Part shown: piece after piece, positions 5,112-62,150 of the stretch | How the letters are laid out: the number at the start of each line of letters is the position of its first letter | Position numbering within the stretch: the stretch's first letter is position 1 | Source of the DNA: an uncultured Chloroflexia bacterium | GTDB taxonomy: Bacteria; Chloroflexota; Chloroflexia; Chloroflexales; Herpetosiphonaceae | Length of the DNA: 64,000 nt | Reading direction: 5' to 3' | NCBI GenBank assembly: GCA_963767035.1 | Contig: CAVYBW010000001.1 | Coordinates: forward strand, 2,502,547 to 2,566,546 | Program-made: the position numbers and the translations under genes | Notes under the pieces: model-generated | Told to the model about the DNA's origin: nothing | What the model saw: the letters and a program-made list of their open reading frames with translations, nothing else | Databases searched by the model: none

Positions 5112-5252
5112 CGTTAATGCAGGCAAGAAGAACAAAGAGCATAGAACAAAGAGCATAGAAATTGAGGATCAGGGGGCTAGGATTTTTAACGCAGAGGATA
5201 CGAGGCTAATAGCTATTTGTAACGGTTCATTGGCTTGGCAAAGATAGGCATT

Positions 5253-5395
5253 CCCTCACCTCCCAACCCCCTCTCCCACTGAACGCAGGCGAGGGGGAGC
5301 CATCGTGGATTGACCGATTGACCATGCATCATGCGAAAACCACGAGGTTAAAGCCCCTCTCCCGCGCCATGGGAGAGGGGTTGGGGTGATGGGAC
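5253..5395. repeat. composite palindromic REP/MITE-like element: unit 1 'CCCTCACC..CCCCTCTCCCACTGAACGCAGGCGAGGGGGAGCC', spacer, unit 2 'CCCTCTCCCGCGCCATGGGAGAGGGGTTGGGGTGATGGGA'
   Basis: Outer arms 'tccctcacctcccaacccc' and 'ggggttggggtgatggga' are reverse complements. Inner hairpins are 'cctctccc gcgccatg ggagagg'. The family recurs at 15443, 27490, 31078, 31245 and 36895. Confidence 0.7.
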
Positions 5396-5482
5396 GCAAG
5401 TTCTTGTCAATCTAATGAACCAACTGCTTTTTACCTTCTAATTTCATCTCTCAGCCTTCATAATTTATCCTTCGCTCAACTC

Positions 5483-10559: not shown

Positions 10560-10599
10560 AGAACATAGAACATAGAACATAGAACATAGAACATAGAGC
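10560..10599. repeat. tandem heptamer repeat (gaacata) x5
   Basis: 'cagaacatagaacatagaacatagaacatagaacatagagc'. Related 'catagaac/agagcat' motifs occur at 5140-5160, 35060-35095, 59779-59805 and 59904-59933. Confidence 0.8.
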
Positions 10600-10611
10600 A
10601 AAGGATGAACG

Positions 10612-10903
10612 CAAAAGGCAGAAGGCAAAAATCCTTCTTGGCGAGACTAAATTCAACATGGCTCTAGGCTATGGGCTTTTGGCTAGTGGAACTCGCTTCG
10701 GGCAATTCGTGGAATTCGTGGCAAAAAACCCTCGCATCTGCGGAATCTGTGGCCAAAAACAAAACTTCGTAGTTGGACAACAGTTTCTATTAACGCAGCG
10801 GCGCAGAGCACCAAAGGCACTCGACTGATGGATAGCGGCTATCAACGATTGGTTGGAGATTTCAACATCCCATAGACTAGAGCCTCATCACTTCGTGGAG
10901 CAA
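10612..10903 (+). repeat. copy A of a ~300-bp direct repeat flanking the low-GC cassette
   Basis: Aligns with 11323-11636 with a few indels; begins 'caaaaggcag..aaaaatccttcttg.cgagactaaattcaa' and ends 'agagcctcatcacttcgtggagcaa'. Confidence 0.85.
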
Positions 10904-11322: not shown

Positions 11323-11636
11323 CAAAAGGCAGCAGCAAAAATCCTTCTTGTCGAGACTAAATTCAATTGCGCAGAGCAATAATTGCTCTAGGCTATGGGC
11401 TTTTGGCTAGCGGAACTCGCTTCGGGCAATTCGTGGAATTCGTGGCAAAAACCCTCGCATCTGCGGAATCTGTGTCAATCTGTGGTCAAAAACAAATTTT
11501 CGTGGTTGGACAACAGTTTCTATTAACGCAGAGGGTCAGAGGAACCATGGATAGCGGCTATCAACGATTGGTTGGAAATTTCAACATCCCTAGCCAAAAG
11601 CCCATACCCTAGAGCCTCATCACTTCGTGGAGCAAA
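11323..11636 (+). repeat. copy B of the ~300-bp direct repeat
   Basis: See copy A. Insertions relative to A: 'ttgcgcagagcaataattg', 'tgtcaatctg', 'tagccaaaagcccataccc'. Confidence 0.85.
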
Positions 11637-15297: not shown

Positions 15298-15442
15298 ACG
15301 ACAAACCTAACAATAATAGTAGCATAGCTTAGGTTACTGTCAATATTTAAACTTTCACGCGTAGGGTTGTTCTTCACCCCTAGCATCCTCCTTTCAAGGG
15401 TAGGTTTTTAATAACGGTGTCGTGGAGGCGTAGTGGTACATT

Positions 15443-15578
15443 CCCTCACCCCCTAGCCCCCTCTCCCACTGCACGCGGGCGAGGGGGAGCCGATTGCACC
15501 CTACCACGAATTATGCCAAAACCACTACATGAATCCCTTCGTTCGCGCCGTGGGAGAGAGGTTGGGATGAGGGAACCA
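15443..15578. repeat. composite palindromic REP/MITE-like element (same family as 5253-5395)
   Basis: 'ccctcaccccctagccccctctcccactgcacgcgggcgagggggagcc ... cgcgccgtgggagagaggttgggatgagggaacc'. Confidence 0.7.
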
Positions 15579-22512: not shown

Positions 22513-23487
22513 ATGGCAAAAATAGGCCGCAACGATCCCTGCCCATGTGGCAGTGGCAAGAAATACAAACAATGTCATGAAGCAACTGATCGTGCGCAAG
22601 AAGACCAGTTGCGCTTATTACGCCGTGCTCAAGATCGGCTGTTTCCCAAATTAATCGAGGCGACCCAAAGCCCAGAATTAGCGCCCACCACGCCAGCATT
22701 ATTTGAGCAATATTGGGGTGGGCGCTACACCGCCGCCGATATGAACGACCTCGATGAGCAAGAAGATCGTGGCTCGGAACGCTTTTTGACCTGGATGGCT
22801 TTCGATGCCCAAAGTGGCGACGATGGCTCAACGCTCGTCGAACGTATCGCTGCCAATCCACCGGCTGAGCTTGAGCTTGACGCGCATGAACTTGATTTGC
22901 TGCCAACATGGGCTGGCATTCGGCTGCGGCCTTACCTGATTGTGGAAATTATCAAAGGTAAAGGGGCCTTGATTCAAGAGGTTTTGACCAAAGAAACCTT
23001 TACTTTGCGCGACCATGCCGCCGCCAAGCGTTTGGAAGAAAACGAATTGATTTTCGCCCATCTTGTGCCAGTTGGCGATGAATATTACATTGCTGGCGCT
23101 GCCGCTCAAACCACACCTGACACCGTGGAAAAATTGGCCGAATTTTTGGCTGTTAGCTTAGAAGATTGGCAATTGCGCAACCCCGATGCCGATTTGAACC
23201 AGTTTGTGCGCGAAAATAGTTATCTGTTCAATCATTTTATCTCGGTGTTGCCACGCGAAGAAAAAGAACCATCGAAGTTTGACGATTTGATGTTGCGTGG
23301 CCGGGCAGCCTTGTTGATGACCAAACAAACGTTAGGTTTGGGCAATGACGATGATGACGACGATGATGACGACGATGATGAATTTGACGATGATGTTGAC
23401 GACGACAGCGACGATGATGCTGAAGTTGACGATGACGATGATCAAACTGAAGCATTAGCCGATTCGAGCGCAGCGCCAACCAACTAA
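22513..23487 (+). CDS. SEC-C motif (zinc-binding) domain protein with an extreme poly-Asp C-terminal tail
   Basis: N-terminal '[18 protein letters not shown]' SEC-C metal-binding motif. The C-terminus '[35 protein letters not shown]' is the direct translation of gat/gac runs at 23341-23445. RBS 'aggag'. Confidence 0.65.
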
Positions 23488-25849: not shown

Positions 25850-27145
25850 GTGGAACCAGTGCATCACTGCCCATATGTGGGCCTTAAACAAAATCGTGCG
25901 ATTCGTTTTGCGAGTCCTACGCCGGAGCACCGCTGCTACATCACTGGTGAGGCCCACGATATTCCAGTGCCCCAGGCCTCGTTTTGTCTGAGCAGCAACC
26001 ATGTGCGTTGCCCATTATATTCAGGTGAGGATCTACCGGTTGCTCAGGTCGTTAGTACGCCTACGCCAGTTGCGGTTGGTGGTTGGCGTGGGTGGCTGGC
26101 GGGGTTATCAACCCGTGATCGCCGGATTTATGCCACCTTGGTGGGCTTACTAGGCTTAATTATTGTGGCCTATGCAATTAGCGGCGTTGTGTTATTTAGC
26201 AACCCCGACTCTACGACCACACCTAGTGCTACCACACTCGTGCTCCAACCAACCAACAATAGCCCAACATTAACGGTTTCGCCATCGCCAAATGCCTTTG
26301 CCACAGCAGCGGTTCGTCAAACTCAAACAGCCGAAGCTATTGCGCTAACCACTACTGCCACTCCCTCGGTCTCTGCTACGCCATCGGCTTCTGCAACCAC
26401 ACAGGTGATTCTTGCATCGCCTACTTTTGTTATTGTACCGCCAACTGACGATGTGATTGTTGCTTCTGCTACTCCTAGCATTCCGTTTGCCACCGATCCA
26501 CCAACATTTGAGCCAATTGCAACAACCACAGTGCCAACGATTGAGCCAACTGTTGAATCAACGATCGCGCCAACGATTGAACCAACAATCGAACCGACCA
26601 TTGAACCAACTGCCGAACCAACCGCCGAGCCAACCAATGAGCCAATCCCAGAACCAACTGCCCAGCCAACTGAGGAAACCGGTAGCCGTGAGGTGAATCA
26701 ACTGACGCTCTTCTTTAGTGATAGCACTGGCCAAGTGTTAGTGCCAGTTTCACGCCAGATTGGAGCGACCCGTCAGCCACGTACCGCCGCAATCCAACAG
26801 TTGATTTATGGGGCACGCAGCGATTTGCGCAGTTTGCTGCCCAGCGATACCCAATTGCTTGGGTTGTGGCTCCAGAATGGCATTGCTACGGCTAATTTTA
26901 ACCGTATCCCGACGTTTGGCAATTCAAGCTTTGAAGATTTGGGCTTGCGTTCGATTGTCTTGGCGCTGACTGAACAATCAGACATCACCCAAGTCCAGAT
27001 CCAAGTTCAAGGCCAAAATTTGGGTGGTTTGCGCTATCGGCCAAACGTCAACCCCGATAATCCGCAGGGTTTAATGGTCAGTTTAACACAACTTCGTTCT
27101 TGCCGTTGTATTTCCAACAAAGCACTGGCCGCTGGGTGCGGGTGA
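25850..27145 (+). CDS. membrane protein, part 1: Cys/His-rich cytoplasmic N-domain, TM helix, Pro/Thr/Glu-rich linker, first GerMN domain (the frame breaks near 27060-27100)
   Basis: 'CPYVG...HRCYITG...FCLSSNHVRCPLY' has 4 Cys. TM 'IYATLVGLLGLIIVAYAISGVVLF'. 'PTIEPT' repeats. GerMN-like 'LTLFFSDSTGQVLVPVSRQIG'. The tail 'LTQLRSCRCISNKALAAGCG' looks out of frame. Confidence 0.6.
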   Translation: MEPVHHCPYVGLKQNRAIRFASPTPEHRCYITGEAHDIPVPQASFCLSSNHVRCPLYSGEDLPVAQVVSTPTPVAVGGWRGWLAGLSTRDRRIYATLVGLLGLIIVAYAISGVVLFSNPDSTTTPSATTLVLQPTNNSPTLTVSPSPNAFATAAVRQTQTAEAIALTTTATPSVSATPSASATTQVILASPTFVIVPPTDDVIVASATPSIPFATDPPTFEPIATTTVPTIEPTVESTIAPTIEPTIEPTIEPTAEPTAEPTNEPIPEPTAQPTEETGSREVNQLTLFFSDSTGQVLVPVSRQIGATRQPRTAAIQQLIYGARSDLRSLLPSDTQLLGLWLQNGIATANFNRIPTFGNSSFEDLGLRSIVLALTEQSDITQVQIQVQGQNLGGLRYRPNVNPDNPQGLMVSLTQLRSCRCISNKALAAGCG

Positions 27146-27483
27146 TGCGACTGGTGCCAAGCACCAAAACCGAGGCCCGCGCCACTGTCGATGAGCTGAT
27201 TCGCGGCGCTGGCCGCTATAGTAATCTGGTTAATAATGCCATTCCCAGCAGCAGCCAAGTACGACGCTTGGTCGTTGTTGATGGCGTAGCACAGCTAGAC
27301 CTCAGCGCCGAATTTAGCCAAACCAGCAATCCCCACGCAGCCGTCGATGCCTTGGTGCTGGCATTAACGTCATTCAGCAGCGTCCAACAGGTGTTGATCA
27401 CGGTCGAAGGTCAGCCACTCAGCACTCTTTGGGGCGCATCATTTAGCAATCCCTTCTTGCGCCCACAACTCAACCCCGAATAG
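27061..27483 (+). CDS. part 2 of the same protein in another frame: second GerMN domain
   Basis: The frame is open from 27061 ('SAGFNGQFNTTSFLPLYFQQSTGRWVRV...VVVDGVAQLDLSAEFSQ...VQQVLITVEGQPL'), a canonical GerMN. There is no independent RBS or ATG. Confidence 0.55.
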   Translation, partial: SAGFNGQFNTTSFLPLYFQQSTGRWVRVMRLVPSTKTEARATVDELIRGAGRYSNLVNNAIPSSSQVRRLVVVDGVAQLDLSAEFSQTSNPHAAVDALVLALTSFSSVQQVLITVEGQPLSTLWGASFSNPFLRPQLNPE

Positions 27484-27489
27484 CTGATT

Positions 27490-27545
27490 CCCCAACCCCC
27501 CAACCCCCCAACCCCCTCTCCCACTGAGCGCGGGCGAGGGGGAGC
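27490..27545. repeat. partial REP/MITE-like element (unit 1 only), followed at 27601-27690 by 'gggatgagggatgaag...cacgaag'-type repeats
   Basis: 'ccccaaccccccaaccccctctcccactgagcgcgggcgagggggagc'. Confidence 0.6.
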
Positions 27546-27876
27546 TGCCTGATCTCTTCCAACGCCCACAACTCAAACCCCGAATAGCCGTAATTGGGTA
27601 AAGAATGAGGGATGAGGGATGAAGTTTATAATTCGTGGCTAAAAGCTTAATCTTTGTGATCTTCGTAGTTAAAGCGTCATTTTTTAGCCCCAGATTTTAC
27701 AGATTTGTTTGCTTATCTGCGATGCTCAAAGCCCAACTTCGTGTCTTTCGTGGTTCCGATCCCCGACCGCTAACAACCGATCCCCAATTAGATTAAGCCC
27801 TTTGGCGCATGGCGCTGCATTGCCAAGCCTGCTATGCTAAAATCAGCGTATTGGTTTAGCTAGATTGAGAACTGCC

Positions 27877-30081: not shown

Positions 30082-31059
30082 GTGAGCACAACTCCTATAA
30101 GCGATTTTTTGCGCCACAACTTTCGTCACTTCAATGCAGCAGCCTTGATCGATGCCAGCGATGGCTATGTGCAGCACCTTGCCAACAATGGCAAAATGAT
30201 GATTACCCTTGCTGGCGCGATGAGCACCGCCGAATTGGGCCTCTCGTTGGCCGAAATGATTCGCCAAGATAAAGTGCAGATTATTTCGTGTACCGGAGCC
30301 AACCTCGAAGAAGATTTATTCAATTTGGTGGCTCACGATTACTATGAACGCGTGCCGCATTATCGCGATTTAACCCCCGATGATGAAGCAGCATTGTTGG
30401 CGCGCCACATGAATCGCGTCACCGACACCTGTATTCCTGAAGAAGAAGCCATGCGCCGCTTGGAACGGGCCTTGGTCGATGAATGGACATCAGCCGATGC
30501 CGCTGGCGAGCGCTATTTTCCCCACGAATTTTTGTATCGCATTTTGCGCAAAGGCGTTTTAGAAGAATTCTTCCAAATCGATATCAAAGATTCGTGGATG
30601 TACGCCGCGATGGAGAAAAACCTGCCAATCATCGTGCCAGGCTGGGAAGATTCGACCACTGGCAATATGTATGCAGCCCACGTTATGCAAGGCGAAATTA
30701 AAAACGTCCACACCGTGCGCACTGGCATCGAATACATGACCTACTTGGCCGGATGGTATATCGAGAATAGCAAAACCCATTCAATTGGCTTCTACCAAAT
30801 TGGCGGCGGCATCGCTGGCGACTTCCCAATTTGTGTTGTGCCAATGTTGCACCAAGATATGCTTATGGGCAACGTGCCAGTGTGGGGCTATTTCTGCCAA
30901 ATCAGCGATTCAACCACCAGTTATGGCTCGTACTCAGGCGCTGTGCCAAACGAGAAAATTACTTGGGGCAAGTTGGAGCCAACCACGCCCAAGTTTATCG
31001 TCGAATCAGATGCTTCAATCGTGGCTCCCTTGATGTTTGCTTTGATTTTAGGGCAGTAA
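30082..31059 (+). CDS. deoxyhypusine synthase-like protein (DHS family)
   Basis: 'ISCTGANLEEDLFNL', 'YQIGGGIAGDFP' and the general DHS fold signature. GTG start. Confidence 0.75.
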   Translation: MSTTPISDFLRHNFRHFNAAALIDASDGYVQHLANNGKMMITLAGAMSTAELGLSLAEMIRQDKVQIISCTGANLEEDLFNLVAHDYYERVPHYRDLTPDDEAALLARHMNRVTDTCIPEEEAMRRLERALVDEWTSADAAGERYFPHEFLYRILRKGVLEEFFQIDIKDSWMYAAMEKNLPIIVPGWEDSTTGNMYAAHVMQGEIKNVHTVRTGIEYMTYLAGWYIENSKTHSIGFYQIGGGIAGDFPICVVPMLHQDMLMGNVPVWGYFCQISDSTTSYGSYSGAVPNEKITWGKLEPTTPKFIVESDASIVAPLMFALILGQ

Positions 31060-31077
31060 ACAGAATATAGTATTTGT

Positions 31078-31408
31078 TCCCTCACCCCCTCGCCCACTGA
31101 ACGCGGGCGAGGGGGAGTCGAACCAGCCAAAACGCTGGTTGATCCGTCTAATGTCGCTGAAACCACCGCGTGAAGCCTCAACCTCGCGCCACGGGAGAGG
31201 GATTGGGGTGAGGGGATCTTCATTACCTACCCTTGTAAGCTAGCCCCCGCTCCCACTGAACGCGGGCGAGGGGGAATCGATCCTTTATTCCAAATGTATC
31301 ACGTAAAAACCACGGGTTTAAACTTGCTCCCGCCGGCGATGGGCAACCACGAGGCCAGCGCTCTCCTTGCCCGCATGCAGTGGGAGCGGGGTTGGGGGTG
31401 AGGGAACA
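31078..31408. repeat. two adjacent composite REP/MITE-like elements (31078-31220 and 31245-31408)
   Basis: 'ccctcaccccctcgcccactgaacgcgggcgagggggagtcg...cgcgccacgggagagggattggggtgaggggatc' and 'cccccgctcccactgaacgcgggcgagggggaatcg...gcagtgggagcggggttgggggtgagggaac'. Confidence 0.7.
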
Positions 31409-31491
31409 CGGTTGCCAATCCAATGAACCATTACAAATAGCCTATAGCCCAAAACCCGAACTTCGTGCTCTTCGTGGTTAAATTAATTCCT

Positions 31492-32848
<1,357 letters not shown>

Positions 32849-36655: not shown

Positions 36656-36894
36656 CATAGCACGTCTGTCCTTGGCAACGAGCCATTTCCCGCTGCTTAC
36701 AAAAAAACGCCCAAGAACCCAGTTGTTCCCGAACATTTGCTTAATGTACGGCACTGCCGCACCAGATTCAATTAACCCCCATTCTACTGCGATCTGCTGT
36801 GCTATGCAAATATGCGAAAATTGTAATAGGGAGTAGAGGTCAGCTTTCAAGCATAGGCTTTTAATAAATCATTATCCGGCAACATGGATCGATG

Positions 36895-36960
36895 GTCACC
36901 ACCCTCCCGTCCCGCCTCAAGGCGGGAAACGCAGGGGGCTTAATCCCCCTGCACCCCCTA
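36895..36960. repeat. variant REP-like palindromic element
   Basis: 'caccctcccgtcccgcctcaaggcgggaaacgcagggggcttaatccccctgcaccccc', with hairpin 'cccgcct caa ggcggg'. Confidence 0.55.
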
Positions 36961-37074: not shown

Positions 37075-37200
37075 GGAACATGCCTTCAACCTTCAACCTT
37101 CAACCTTCAATCTTCATCCTTCATCCTTCAACCTTCATCCTTCAACCTTCATCCTTCAACCTTCAACCTTCATCCTTCAACCTTCATCCTTCTCTGCGTT
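37075..37200. repeat. 7-bp tandem repeat array (ccttcaa/ccttcat, about 17 units)
   Basis: 'ttcaaccttcaaccttcaaccttcaatcttcatccttcatccttcaaccttcatcc...'. A partial copy of the 10612-type repeat ('ctaggctatgggctagcggaac') is immediately upstream at 37040-37072. Confidence 0.85.
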
Positions 37201-60886: not shown

Positions 60887-61936
60887 ATGGCCACGATGCC
60901 AATGAGTGAAACCTATATTCAACCGAGCGAACCAACGCGCAGCCATCCATGGCGAGTGATTATTCAAATTCCCTGTTTGAATGAAGAGGAAACGCTGCCG
61001 GCAGTGTTGAATGATATTCCCTTGGATTTACCCAATGTGCATTTTGAAACCTTAGTGATTGACGATGGCTCGACTGATCGCACGGTTGAAGTTGCCCGCG
61101 AACTTGGGGTCAACTATATTGTGCGCCATCGTGGTCGCAAAGGCTTGCCAGCCGCCTTTCAATCGGGCATGGATGCGGCGCTGAAGCTCGGCGCTGATAT
61201 CATTGTCAACACCGATGGCGATCATCAATACCCTGGTTCGGCGATTCCAGATTTGATCAAGCCAATTTTAGAGGGCAAGGCCGATATTGTGATTGGCGAC
61301 CGCCAAACCCAAAATGTCGAGCATTTTTCGACCCAAAAGAAATTACTACAACGGGTTGGTAGTTGGGTTGTGCGCGTTGCCTCCGATACCGATGTGCCCG
61401 ATGCGCCCAGTGGTTTTCGCGCCTATTCCAAAGAAGCAGGCTTGCGTTTGTATGTTACCAGCGAATTTTCCTATACGATTGAAAATTTAATTCAGGCTGG
61501 CAAACGGCGGCTGCATGTTGATCATGTGGCGATTACCACCAAGCCAACCCGACCATCGCGCTTGCATCGCGGCAATTTTAATTTTGTTAAGCGCCAAGGT
61601 GCAACGATTATCCGCACCTATGCCCAATATGAACCGCTGAAAACCTTTACCTACTTTGCGCTGCCATTTTTGCTGATCGGCGGCGGCCTGCTGCTACGCT
61701 TTATGATCTACTATTTACTTGATCCCAATCAGACCTATACCCGCTATTTACAATCGGTTTTTATTGGCGGCGTGTTTATGATTGTCGGAATTTTAACCTT
61801 CTTCATTGGCATTTTGGCCGACTTGAGCGGCAACAATCGCCGAATCAACGAAGAAATTCTCTATCGTTTGCGCAACCTTGAAGTTGAGGTTGCCCGCCGC
61901 TCACCGCCCAATGATGGCGAAGAAATCCGCGATTAG
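60887..61936 (+). CDS. GT2 polyprenol-phosphate glycosyltransferase (DPM1/GtrB/ArnC-like) with two C-terminal TM helices
   Basis: 'IIQIPCLNEEETL', 'LVIDDGSTDRT', 'DGDHQY' (DXD), and C-terminal helices 'FALPFLLIGGGLLLRFMIYYLL' and 'FIGGVFMIVGILTFFIGILADL'. Confidence 0.8.
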   Translation: MATMPMSETYIQPSEPTRSHPWRVIIQIPCLNEEETLPAVLNDIPLDLPNVHFETLVIDDGSTDRTVEVARELGVNYIVRHRGRKGLPAAFQSGMDAALKLGADIIVNTDGDHQYPGSAIPDLIKPILEGKADIVIGDRQTQNVEHFSTQKKLLQRVGSWVVRVASDTDVPDAPSGFRAYSKEAGLRLYVTSEFSYTIENLIQAGKRRLHVDHVAITTKPTRPSRLHRGNFNFVKRQGATIIRTYAQYEPLKTFTYFALPFLLIGGGLLLRFMIYYLLDPNQTYTRYLQSVFIGGVFMIVGILTFFIGILADLSGNNRRINEEILYRLRNLEVEVARRSPPNDGEEIRD

Positions 61937-62150
61937 GGGTCAGGGATCAGGTGCTAGGGTTCAGTTTTTGATTCACGAAGGACACGAAGGCCGAAACCGC
62001 GAAGATCACGAAGATCGCGAAGGTTAAGTTTTTAGCCACAGATTCCACAGATTTCTGGATTAGCTACGAGCGATGTCCAACGTGTTGGCTGATCCCTGAC
62101 TGCTGACCTCTTTTCCTCCTTCATCCCTCATCCCTCATCCTTTATCCCTT
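61937..62150. repeat. intergenic short-repeat cluster ('gggatcagg', 'cacgaag' x4, 'catccctcatccctcatcc')
   Basis: Same motif family as 14160-14200, 27601-27690, 35100-35300 and 63940-64000. Confidence 0.6.

Follow-up and report, generated by a model that had tools for sequence, protein, structure and literature searches.

What are the short palindromic sequences that recur between the genes of an uncultured bacterium of the family Herpetosiphonaceae, and how do they move? The question was raised by a 64,000-nucleotide (nt) stretch of its genome (hereafter the window; contig CAVYBW010000001.1 of GenBank assembly GCA_963767035.1, positions 2,502,547 to 2,566,546, forward strand). An original prediction, made from the sequence alone, had listed six copies of an element resembling repetitive extragenic palindromes (REPs) or miniature inverted-repeat transposable elements (MITEs), and the sequences it quoted were present where it had placed them. 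A profile hidden Markov model built from 77 full copies assigned five of the six to one family (5250-5394, 15440-15575, 27503-27555, 31076-31217 and 31228-31407), all of them intergenic, as had been claimed. The sixth, at 36895-36960, was unmatched by the profile and was rejected as a member, being a separate 64-nt two-hairpin repeat of a different family.

The family was found to be a genus-wide, non-coding repeat of Herpetosiphon, built from units of the BoxC type known from Escherichia coli. It was strongly self-complementary, lay just behind genes and was rapidly gained, lost and rearranged. It lacked the hallmarks by which DDE-type MITEs, intrinsic terminators and known RNA families are recognised. 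The idea of a dispersed, REP-like palindromic family was upheld, since the copies shared a conserved structure and occurred beyond the window. Within the window, the 32-nt left hairpin CCCCTCTCCCACTGAACGCGGGCGAGGGGGAG had five matches with at most two mismatches (positions 5268, 15458, 27513, 31086 and 31245), compared with 0 expected. The right end GGGAGAGGGGTTGGGGTGAGGG occurred three times, again with 0 expected, and in a variant form at 31381-31404. All left-hairpin matches were on the + strand, and this common orientation of the five copies is probably due to chance.

Anatomy and fold of the unit

The canonical core had a modal length of 133-136 nt, with conservation dropping steeply at either end. 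It was composed of two inverted arms around a spacer of approximately 50 nt. Because the spacer was not symmetric, the unit had a polarity, even though the arms were inverted copies of each other. Each arm contained three blocks, CCCTC[T/G]CCC, GGG[C/A]GAGGG and GGGTGAGGG. The left part of the consensus read TT-CCCTCACCCC-CCAA-CCCCCTCTCCC-ACTGAACGC-GGGCGAGGGG-GAG and was followed by the spacer, with AGAACCAC and TTAAAG as its conserved parts, and by the right part, CCCCTCGCCC-GCGCCAC-GGGAGAGGGG-TT-GGGGTGAGGG-GATC. Many copies additionally carried inverted pairs of accessory arms, which were of two kinds, 'Y' (GTACTGGTTCATTGGATTGGCAACC) and 'Z' (CTTTCAAGGGTAGGTTTT). Most of these lay at most 60 nt from a core (40 of 46 Y motifs and 48 of 51 Z motifs), and the Z motif doubled as a linker in tandem arrays, for example between copies 4 and 5 of the window. 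Heptamer tandem repeats were frequent just outside the elements, in other Herpetosiphon species too.

The comparison with REPs and bacterial interspersed mosaic elements (BIMEs), which had been proposed as a check, was informative: the architecture was that of a REP doublet, similar to a REPIN, and the accessory motifs made BIME-like mosaics. As in REPINs (Bertels & Rainey 2011, PMC3116915), two short imperfect palindromes were inverted around a spacer and formed one long hairpin. With the BIMEs of E. coli the family shared a palindromic core with a few accessory motifs, alternating orientation, tandem arrays and a position at gene 3' ends, but the sequences were unrelated, and the Herpetosiphon elements are not known to bind IHF, gyrase or Pol I.

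The consensus folded with -82 kcal/mol as RNA (z = -7.9) and with -44 kcal/mol as DNA (z = -7.5). A single long hairpin, in which the left arm paired with the right arm, was the minimum-energy structure for RNA and DNA alike and also for copy 1 of the window on either strand. The outer inverted repeat enclosing two hairpins, as originally drawn, was therefore one of two competing folds and not the most stable one. The local hairpins held a central mismatch (T.C on the left, G.A on the right), whereas across the arms the same letters paired perfectly (T-A and C-G, with A-T in the outer block). The master combination of centre letters was present in 41 of 69 distinct full copies. In an alignment of 61 sequences, 94.6% of the cells were paired under the long-hairpin model and 88.2% under the local-hairpin model, and changes on both sides of a pair exceeded those of shuffled controls under either model. 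The first 'loop' position of the right hairpin co-varied with its partner (G-C 32, G-U 19, A-U 6, unpaired 4), and 17 of 21 single changes at the four centre positions exactly restored local pairing, where one in three was expected. The local hairpins were thus supported in their own right by co-variation and by pairing-restoring changes. This does not prove hairpin extrusion, because conversion between the direct-repeat blocks would give the same changes. According to the folding models, the long hairpin and the two local hairpins should both be available to the element.

The G-rich strand of each arm contained four G-runs (GGGAGAGGGGTTGGGGTGAGGG) and was mirror-symmetric. Judged by its letters, this strand could adopt a purine-motif intrastrand triplex or a G-quadruplex. 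For the triplex, this refers to the sequence requirement only, namely the mirror repeat GGGAGAGGGG-TT-GGGGTGAGGG beside its C-rich complement.

Relation to the BoxC motif of Escherichia coli

The closest known relative, which the original prediction had missed, was the BoxC motif of E. coli, identical to the PIT element and to the TMECO 'intrastrand triplex motif' (Bergler 1992; Hoyne/Maher 2000; Holder 2015, PMC4666352). The E. coli motifs are also called HPG1/HPG2, with a predicted G-quadruplex/hairpin switch (bioRxiv 10.1101/032615). The 2015 paper was found through a full-text search for GGGGTGAGGG. The published BoxC pattern is CCCTCNCCC-N3-6-GGGNGAGGG-N3-GGGNGAGGG (Holder 2015, PMC4666352), and the commonest E. 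coli type, 'A mm', is CCCTCGCCCC-TTT-GGGGAGAGGG-TTA-GGGTGAGGGG, with the centre letters (G,A,T) (PMC4666352). The right arm of the Herpetosiphon element reads CCCCTCGCCC-GCGCCAC-GGGAGAGGGG-TT-GGGGTGAGGGG for comparison. Both consensus arms showed the three-block order of BoxC. The order and orientation of the parts corresponded (CCCTCGCCC, a loop, GGGAGAGGG, a short linker starting with TT, and GGGTGAGGG), and all three centre letters agreed, the 'mismatch' included. With relaxed loops, the three-block pattern matched 96 Herpetosiphon arms, with (G,A,T) in 77 and (T,A,T) in five of them. The pattern as published (loops N3-6 and N3) gave no strict match in the Herpetosiphon loci, because their loops were longer, 6-9 and 4-6 nt compared with 3-6 and 3 nt in E. 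coli. The commonest Herpetosiphon loops were GCGCCAC / GCGTTCAGT and GTTG.

The likeness extended to genomic behaviour. Both elements are intergenic, without strand bias, occasionally arranged as inverted pairs, located in locally unstable DNA and, as far as searched, not linked to a transposase. The E. coli motif has no transposase nearby, and its triplex is stable in vitro (Holder 2015, PMC4666352). Its raised local variability between strains (PMC4666352) matches the turnover observed in Herpetosiphon. There were also clear differences. The Herpetosiphon arms were nearly always doublets with the third block outside, whereas this block was inside in one E. coli pair examined. The ~50-nt polar spacer (AGAACCAC ... 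TTAAAG), the Y and Z arms and the tandem arrays set the family apart, as did its abundance, with an estimate of hundreds per genome compared with 23 in strain K-12. Finally, the elements described here belong to the Chloroflexota, whereas the pattern has been reported only from Proteobacteria (PMC4666352).

Matches to the motif also occurred in viral sequences. The exact (G,A,T) three-block pattern had at least 120 matches in a viral contig collection, with diverse loops and 36-70% G+C. When the centre letters were left free, at least 120 viral matches were again obtained, of which 23 were (G,A,T) loci from the first scan and 97 were new. The new loci showed (T,A,T) 87 times and (T,A,A) 21 times. 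Centre pairs that could pair equally well were nearly absent among the matches listed (C-G 3, A-T 0, G-C 1), which indicates conservation of sequence and not only of structure. Whether in E. coli, Chloroflexota or the viral contigs, the three GGGNGAGGG blocks had the same centres, namely C (read on the complementary strand), A and T. The BoxC-type motif was present in at least 217 viral or prophage contigs of IMG/VR (L084-L300 in our numbering), where inverted pairs of either arrangement occurred (e.g., L207 and L223). No Y1 transposase was found within 2 kb of the viral motifs, and the protein families that recurred near them were only phage genes common to small groups of contigs.

Abundance and distribution

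One genome per species was scanned with the pattern CCCACTGNNCGCRGGCGAGGGGG, which yielded at least 78 loci. Among the matches listed, all 78 were from Herpetosiphon, namely sp. NSE202, H. giganteus or H. llansteffanensis. The window is itself Herpetosiphon DNA, and the proteins flanking its copies were 95-98% identical to those of named Herpetosiphon species. The same pattern had no match in 2.9 million viral contigs and one in a metagenome collection, so that the family was confined to Herpetosiphon as far as these collections show. The window and the 78 loci contained 126 matches to the left hairpin and, by profile, 172 distinct copies (95 full and 77 partial). Arrays numbered 91 and consisted of 56 singles, 28 doubles, six triples and one quadruple. 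In approximately 223 kb of sequence that had not been chosen for the element (the window and eight syntenic loci of 12-21 kb), 14 copies were present. This density of about one copy per 15 kb suggests, as a rough estimate, a few hundred copies per genome.

Literature searches combining Herpetosiphon with REP, REPIN or RAYT (REP-associated tyrosine transposase) returned nothing on this genus, which was also unmentioned in the supplements of Holder 2015 and of a survey of HUH enzymes. What appears to be new here is the arrangement as doublets with a conserved spacer and accessory arms, together with the abundance and the phylum; the building block was already known.

Turnover between Herpetosiphon species

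Syntenic regions were compared between the window and H. aurantiacus, H. geysericola, NSE202, H. gulosus, H. llansteffanensis and a Herpetosiphonaceae metagenome-assembled genome. At all four orthologous sites examined, copies were variably present, absent or truncated. On the 3' side of the deoxyhypusine-synthase-family gene, the window had two copies, NSE202 one and three species none. Between the Germane-domain gene and tex, a full orthologous copy was present in H. aurantiacus, H. gulosus and NSE202, none in H. geysericola and only the left arm in the window. The element between cysK and trkA was present only in the window, and four relatives had none at the orthologous position. Relative to H. 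llansteffanensis, 44 nt of unrelated sequence were replaced there by a ~245-nt block comprising the core, the Z motif and flanks, and this block ended ~10 nt upstream of a conserved cysK promoter-like site. On the 3' side of fusA, the window had a Y-core-Y block (~210 nt) in place of ~130 nt of other repeats. Conversely, the window had no copy at 61936-62125, where H. llansteffanensis and NSE202 have one in common.

The species thus differed in whole blocks of core and accessory arms, which were present, absent, truncated or internally rearranged. A clean insertion with its empty site was found neither among the loci nor at the four orthologous sites in up to five relatives. In the closest species pair, differences within the element were deletions and duplications bounded by the internal direct G/C blocks. 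These indels, like the whole-block replacements between species, fit the suggestion that the elements could act as recombination sites. For 42 of 75 copies, compared with ~26 expected, the nearest neighbour in sequence was in the same genome, and some dispersed pairs with unrelated flanks were 95-97% identical, which points to ongoing copying or homogenisation within genomes.

The surrounding DNA was variable as well. Intergenic DNA was unalignable between Herpetosiphon species despite the 95-98% identity of the flanking proteins, for example at 27145-27865, 31059-31492 and 61936-62125 of the window. At any given site, each Herpetosiphon species had its own mix of short repeats (loci L080-L083, L063, L065 and L301-L304).

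We hypothesize, with moderate confidence, that the family is structured DNA, selfish or neutral, whose turnover is due to recombination or template switching. An element of this kind would have no gene-specific function and would persist in the least harmful places, close behind stop codons. Its spread and decay would proceed in blocks of ~135-245 nt and not by cut-and-paste, and would possibly involve recombination, replication slippage or template switching where replication intermediates stall or form hairpins. Its main effect would be instability of intergenic DNA. As a side effect, read-through transcripts would gain a strong 3' stem-loop.

Genomic setting

Copies were intergenic in 165 of 172 cases, and the remaining seven were in spurious open reading frames (ORFs) that ran through elements. 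Same-direction genes flanked 75 copies, convergent genes 44 and divergent genes 15, while the available intergenic regions of these types numbered 307, 90 and 77, respectively. Convergent regions were therefore enriched (44 of 134 copies compared with 90 of 474 regions) and divergent regions depleted. Between same-direction genes, 38 copies pointed one way and 37 the other, so that there was no strand bias. The arrays in this setting were nearer to the upstream stop codon in 42 of 53 cases, with a median distance of 38 nt to the stop and of 141 nt to the next start. Between convergent genes, the median distance from an array to the nearest stop was 8 nt. Terminator-like and promoter-like consensus sites were absent from the five window copies, and no T-tract followed the hairpins, the conserved 3' flank being GATCTTAA or GATCAAGC. 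The proposed role as an intrinsic terminator was consequently not borne out. A covariance-model search for known RNAs was likewise negative: no Rfam family matched the window at the gathering score, and a search by E-value added only eukaryotic hairpin models that scored below threshold.

A position behind genes would also be expected of a host-selected RNA element, that is, a 3'-end stem-loop that guards mRNA from 3' exonucleases or aids the end of transcription. A role at mRNA 3' ends has been shown for some REPs of E. coli. The closeness to stop codons, the enrichment between convergent genes and the very stable RNA fold in both orientations are consistent with such a function. We nevertheless consider it unlikely. 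Apart from the lack of a T-tract or terminator-like site at any window copy, about one in nine copies was in a divergent promoter region, copy 2 of the window included, and closely related species with the same flanking genes had gained, lost or truncated copies. Selection against insertions near promoters could also explain the position. Furthermore, PIT elements had no promoter or terminator activity in earlier work cited by Holder 2015 (PMC4666352).

Tests of mobility

The doublet of imperfect palindromes could alternatively mark a strict REPIN, a non-autonomous element copied via single-stranded hairpins by a HUH/Y1 transposase (RAYT or TIRYT) whose single gene lies elsewhere in the genome. 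Its inverted arrangement, folding into a long hairpin, is as expected. Like REPINs (PMC3116915), the family was abundant, intergenic, vertically inherited and persistent across species, without target-site duplications. With 75 full copies, no enrichment of direct repeats of 2-9 nt was detected at any of 49 boundary offsets and seven lengths, as expected of Y1 enzymes. The clustering of copies within genomes and their persistence at orthologous sites in several species point in the same direction. In addition, the terminal GGGGTGAG fits GGGGWSAS, a motif reported from inverted repeats on either side of TIRYT genes (Di Nocera 2013, PMC3733652), a match that is short and could be due to chance.

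Other observations were at odds with a strict REPIN. At the foot of a REP palindrome, a GTAG or CGTC tetranucleotide is conserved (Di Nocera 2013, PMC3733652), but neither tag was present in the consensus or its conserved flanks (R-T-T before CCCTCACC and G-A-T-C after GGTGAGGG). Y1 transposases were searched for in 22,703 ORFs from 2.85 Mb around the Herpetosiphon copies and the viral BoxC-type motifs (~0.85 Mb of Herpetosiphon and 2 Mb of viral loci; E ≤ 1e-3). The probes were IS200 TnpA, E. coli TnpA-REP and 25 RAYT/TIRYT sequences from Di Nocera 2013 (PMC3733652). The first was validated by Pfam Y1_Tnp (PF01797, 131 bits) and the second by 100% identity to PDB 4ER8. No IS200, RAYT or TIRYT gene was detected in this sequence, although a single-copy gene might lie in other parts of the genomes. 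The orientation of copies showed no link to local GC skew (p = 0.48), and the species differed by block replacement and internal slippage, not by precise insertion. A strict REPIN is thus also improbable in our view.

Possible recognition of the conserved blocks

The identity of the centre letters across distant groups suggests two further explanations. The BoxC-type motif might be a sequence-specific, pan-bacterial element that is copied or bound by further machinery, either a transposase-independent replicator or a universal host factor; we regard this as speculative and rather improbable.

Alternatively, a widely conserved host factor might recognise the arms, either as an array of binding sites or as a device of non-B DNA (triplex or G-quadruplex); on this account, the 9-mers would keep their centre letters across phyla because the factor recognises them. 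In its favour, E. coli and Herpetosiphon share these letters with at least 217 viral contigs, whose G+C content spans 36-70%, and other compatible pairs are nearly absent. It is also favoured by the four G-runs (GGGAGAGGGGTTGGGGTGAGGG) and the mirror symmetry of each arm, the in vitro triplex of the E. coli motif (Holder 2015, PMC4666352) and the G-quadruplex/hairpin predictions (bioRxiv 10.1101/032615). No binding factor is known, the E. coli triplex was not detected in vivo (Holder 2015, PMC4666352), and rapid gain and loss between species speaks against an essential role at a given locus. This explanation is quite improbable.

A classical MITE, mobilised by a DDE transposase with specificity for inverted terminal repeats of ~25 nt, was already disfavoured and is very improbable: the long inverted terminal repeats, a length of <300 nt, the lack of coding sequence and the many dispersed copies would suit it, but none of the 49 offsets showed a target-site duplication (2-9 nt), no orthologous site had a clean insertion of element size, and the genome sample yielded neither a parent insertion sequence nor a transposase gene between split arms, where the ORFs encoded, according to Pfam, a chitinase, MscS, a metallo-beta-lactamase fold and YhhN.

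Structured DNA that turns over by recombination or template switching remains our preferred explanation, and several points weigh against it. The lack of a clean empty site leaves room for a dedicated, trans-acting transposase, and the Herpetosiphon part of the Y1 search covered only ~0.85 Mb. The triplex of E. coli BoxC has not been seen in vivo (Holder 2015, PMC4666352). The gene calls at the loci were crude longest-ORF calls. The proximity to stop codons, together with the very strong conservation of the three 9-mers across phyla, could reflect a selected function, such as protection of mRNA 3' ends or binding of a protein.

Copies and other repeats in the window

Two of the five window members were between same-direction genes, one was in a divergent region and the tandem pair was between convergent genes. 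Their neighbours were housekeeping genes (murJ, fusA, cysK, trkA, tex and the deoxyhypusine-synthase-family gene). Copy 1 was a full core on the + strand (5253-5392), with the left arm at 5253-5299, the spacer at 5300-5352 and the right arm at 5353-5392. It scored 118.8 bits with the profile and was predicted to fold into a single long hairpin of -80 kcal/mol (z = -6.6). An accessory outer arm of type Y, GTAACGGTTCATTGGCTTGGCAAAG, was found to its left by motif search (inverted repeat, 5219-5243, + strand), with the inverted partner TTGTCAATCTAATGAACCAACTGC at ~5405-5430. Copy 2, also a full core (15443-15573, + strand; 104.5 bits), was in the divergent cysK-trkA intergenic region, and an exact match to the Z motif CTTTCAAGGGTAGGTTTT was located upstream of it (15391-15408, + strand). 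Copy 3 consisted of the left arm only (27503-27555, + strand; profile positions 11-62). In place of its outer block was the tandem repeat (CCCCAACC)3.4 at 27490-27516.

The tandem pair began 17 nt past the stop codon of the deoxyhypusine-synthase-family gene with copy 4, a full core by profile with a shortened left arm (31079-31214, + strand). The Z-type linker GATCTTCATTACCTACCCTTGTAAGCTAG (31215-31243, + strand), which also connected tandem copies at many other loci, was followed by copy 5 (31244-31404, + strand). This copy was without the left outer block and had ~45 extra nt. Its right-arm loop was the complement of its left-arm loop, and its arms were 89% complementary. An accessory Y arm with one mismatch was found to its right (31410-31434, - strand). 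The gene adjoining the tandem pair, which encodes a glycoside hydrolase of family 1 (GH1), was broken into two ORFs on the - strand (31492-31824 and 31829-32818). The 110-amino-acid ORF aligned to positions 345-453 of the Pfam GH1 model. This gene was absent from the corresponding site in three relatives, and a remnant of 74 amino acids was present in H. gulosus.

The 64-nt repeat at 36895-36960 was also intergenic and in a similar setting, accompanied by a Z-like motif (36844-36861) and, on its downstream side, by TAATGAACCA. Its two hairpins, CCCGCC-TCAA-GGCGGG and CAGGGGG-CTTAAT-CCCCCTG, were in tandem, and its core recurred in other loci (three copies in L033, and also in L059, L037 and L040). 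Further intergenic tandem repeats were CCTTCAA (15.7 units, 37083-37192), AGAACAT (5.4 units, 10560-10597), a 14-mer (2.3 units, 5129-5160), TCCCTCA (4.7 units, 62117-62149) and the CCCCAACC repeat beside copy 3 (3.4 units). A direct repeat of ~210 nt (10658-10871 and 11382-11590) had 85-98% identity between its units, 720 nt apart, and 27-nt inverted arms (10660-10686 and 11590-11616) that were 96% complementary; related pieces were located at 27630-27666 and 62008-62052. Coding repeats, unrelated to the family, were present at 71-367, 26517-26672 and 23335-23460. They comprised Pro/Thr-rich units of 33 nt and 12 nt and an Asp-rich GAC/GAT run, and the Pro/Thr-rich repeat corresponded to the Pfam PT repeat in the Germane-domain protein.

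The heptamer repeats of the window recall the STRR heptamers of filamentous cyanobacteria. Elhai et al., cited in PMC3733652, are said to have described, in 2008, small dispersed repeats together with heptamer STRR repeats in these organisms. The common trait is intergenic DNA crowded with short repeat families, in which heptamers stand beside palindromic units; the sequences and the phylum differ.

Implications

The elements and their companion repeats explain why intergenic DNA of Herpetosiphon is unalignable, and they can seed spurious ORFs. The BoxC/PIT/TMECO motif has been known in E. coli for thirty years, and to our knowledge neither a function nor a means of spread has been established for it. 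The same three 9-mers, with the same centre letters, are now seen in a distant phylum, where they are far more abundant, arranged as a regular doublet and subject to fast turnover between sister species. If the motif were indeed a pan-bacterial element, its REPIN-like doublet amplification in Herpetosiphon would be the best system in which to find the machinery behind it. The family provides a larger natural sample for asking what keeps BoxC-type sequences exact and how the units move.

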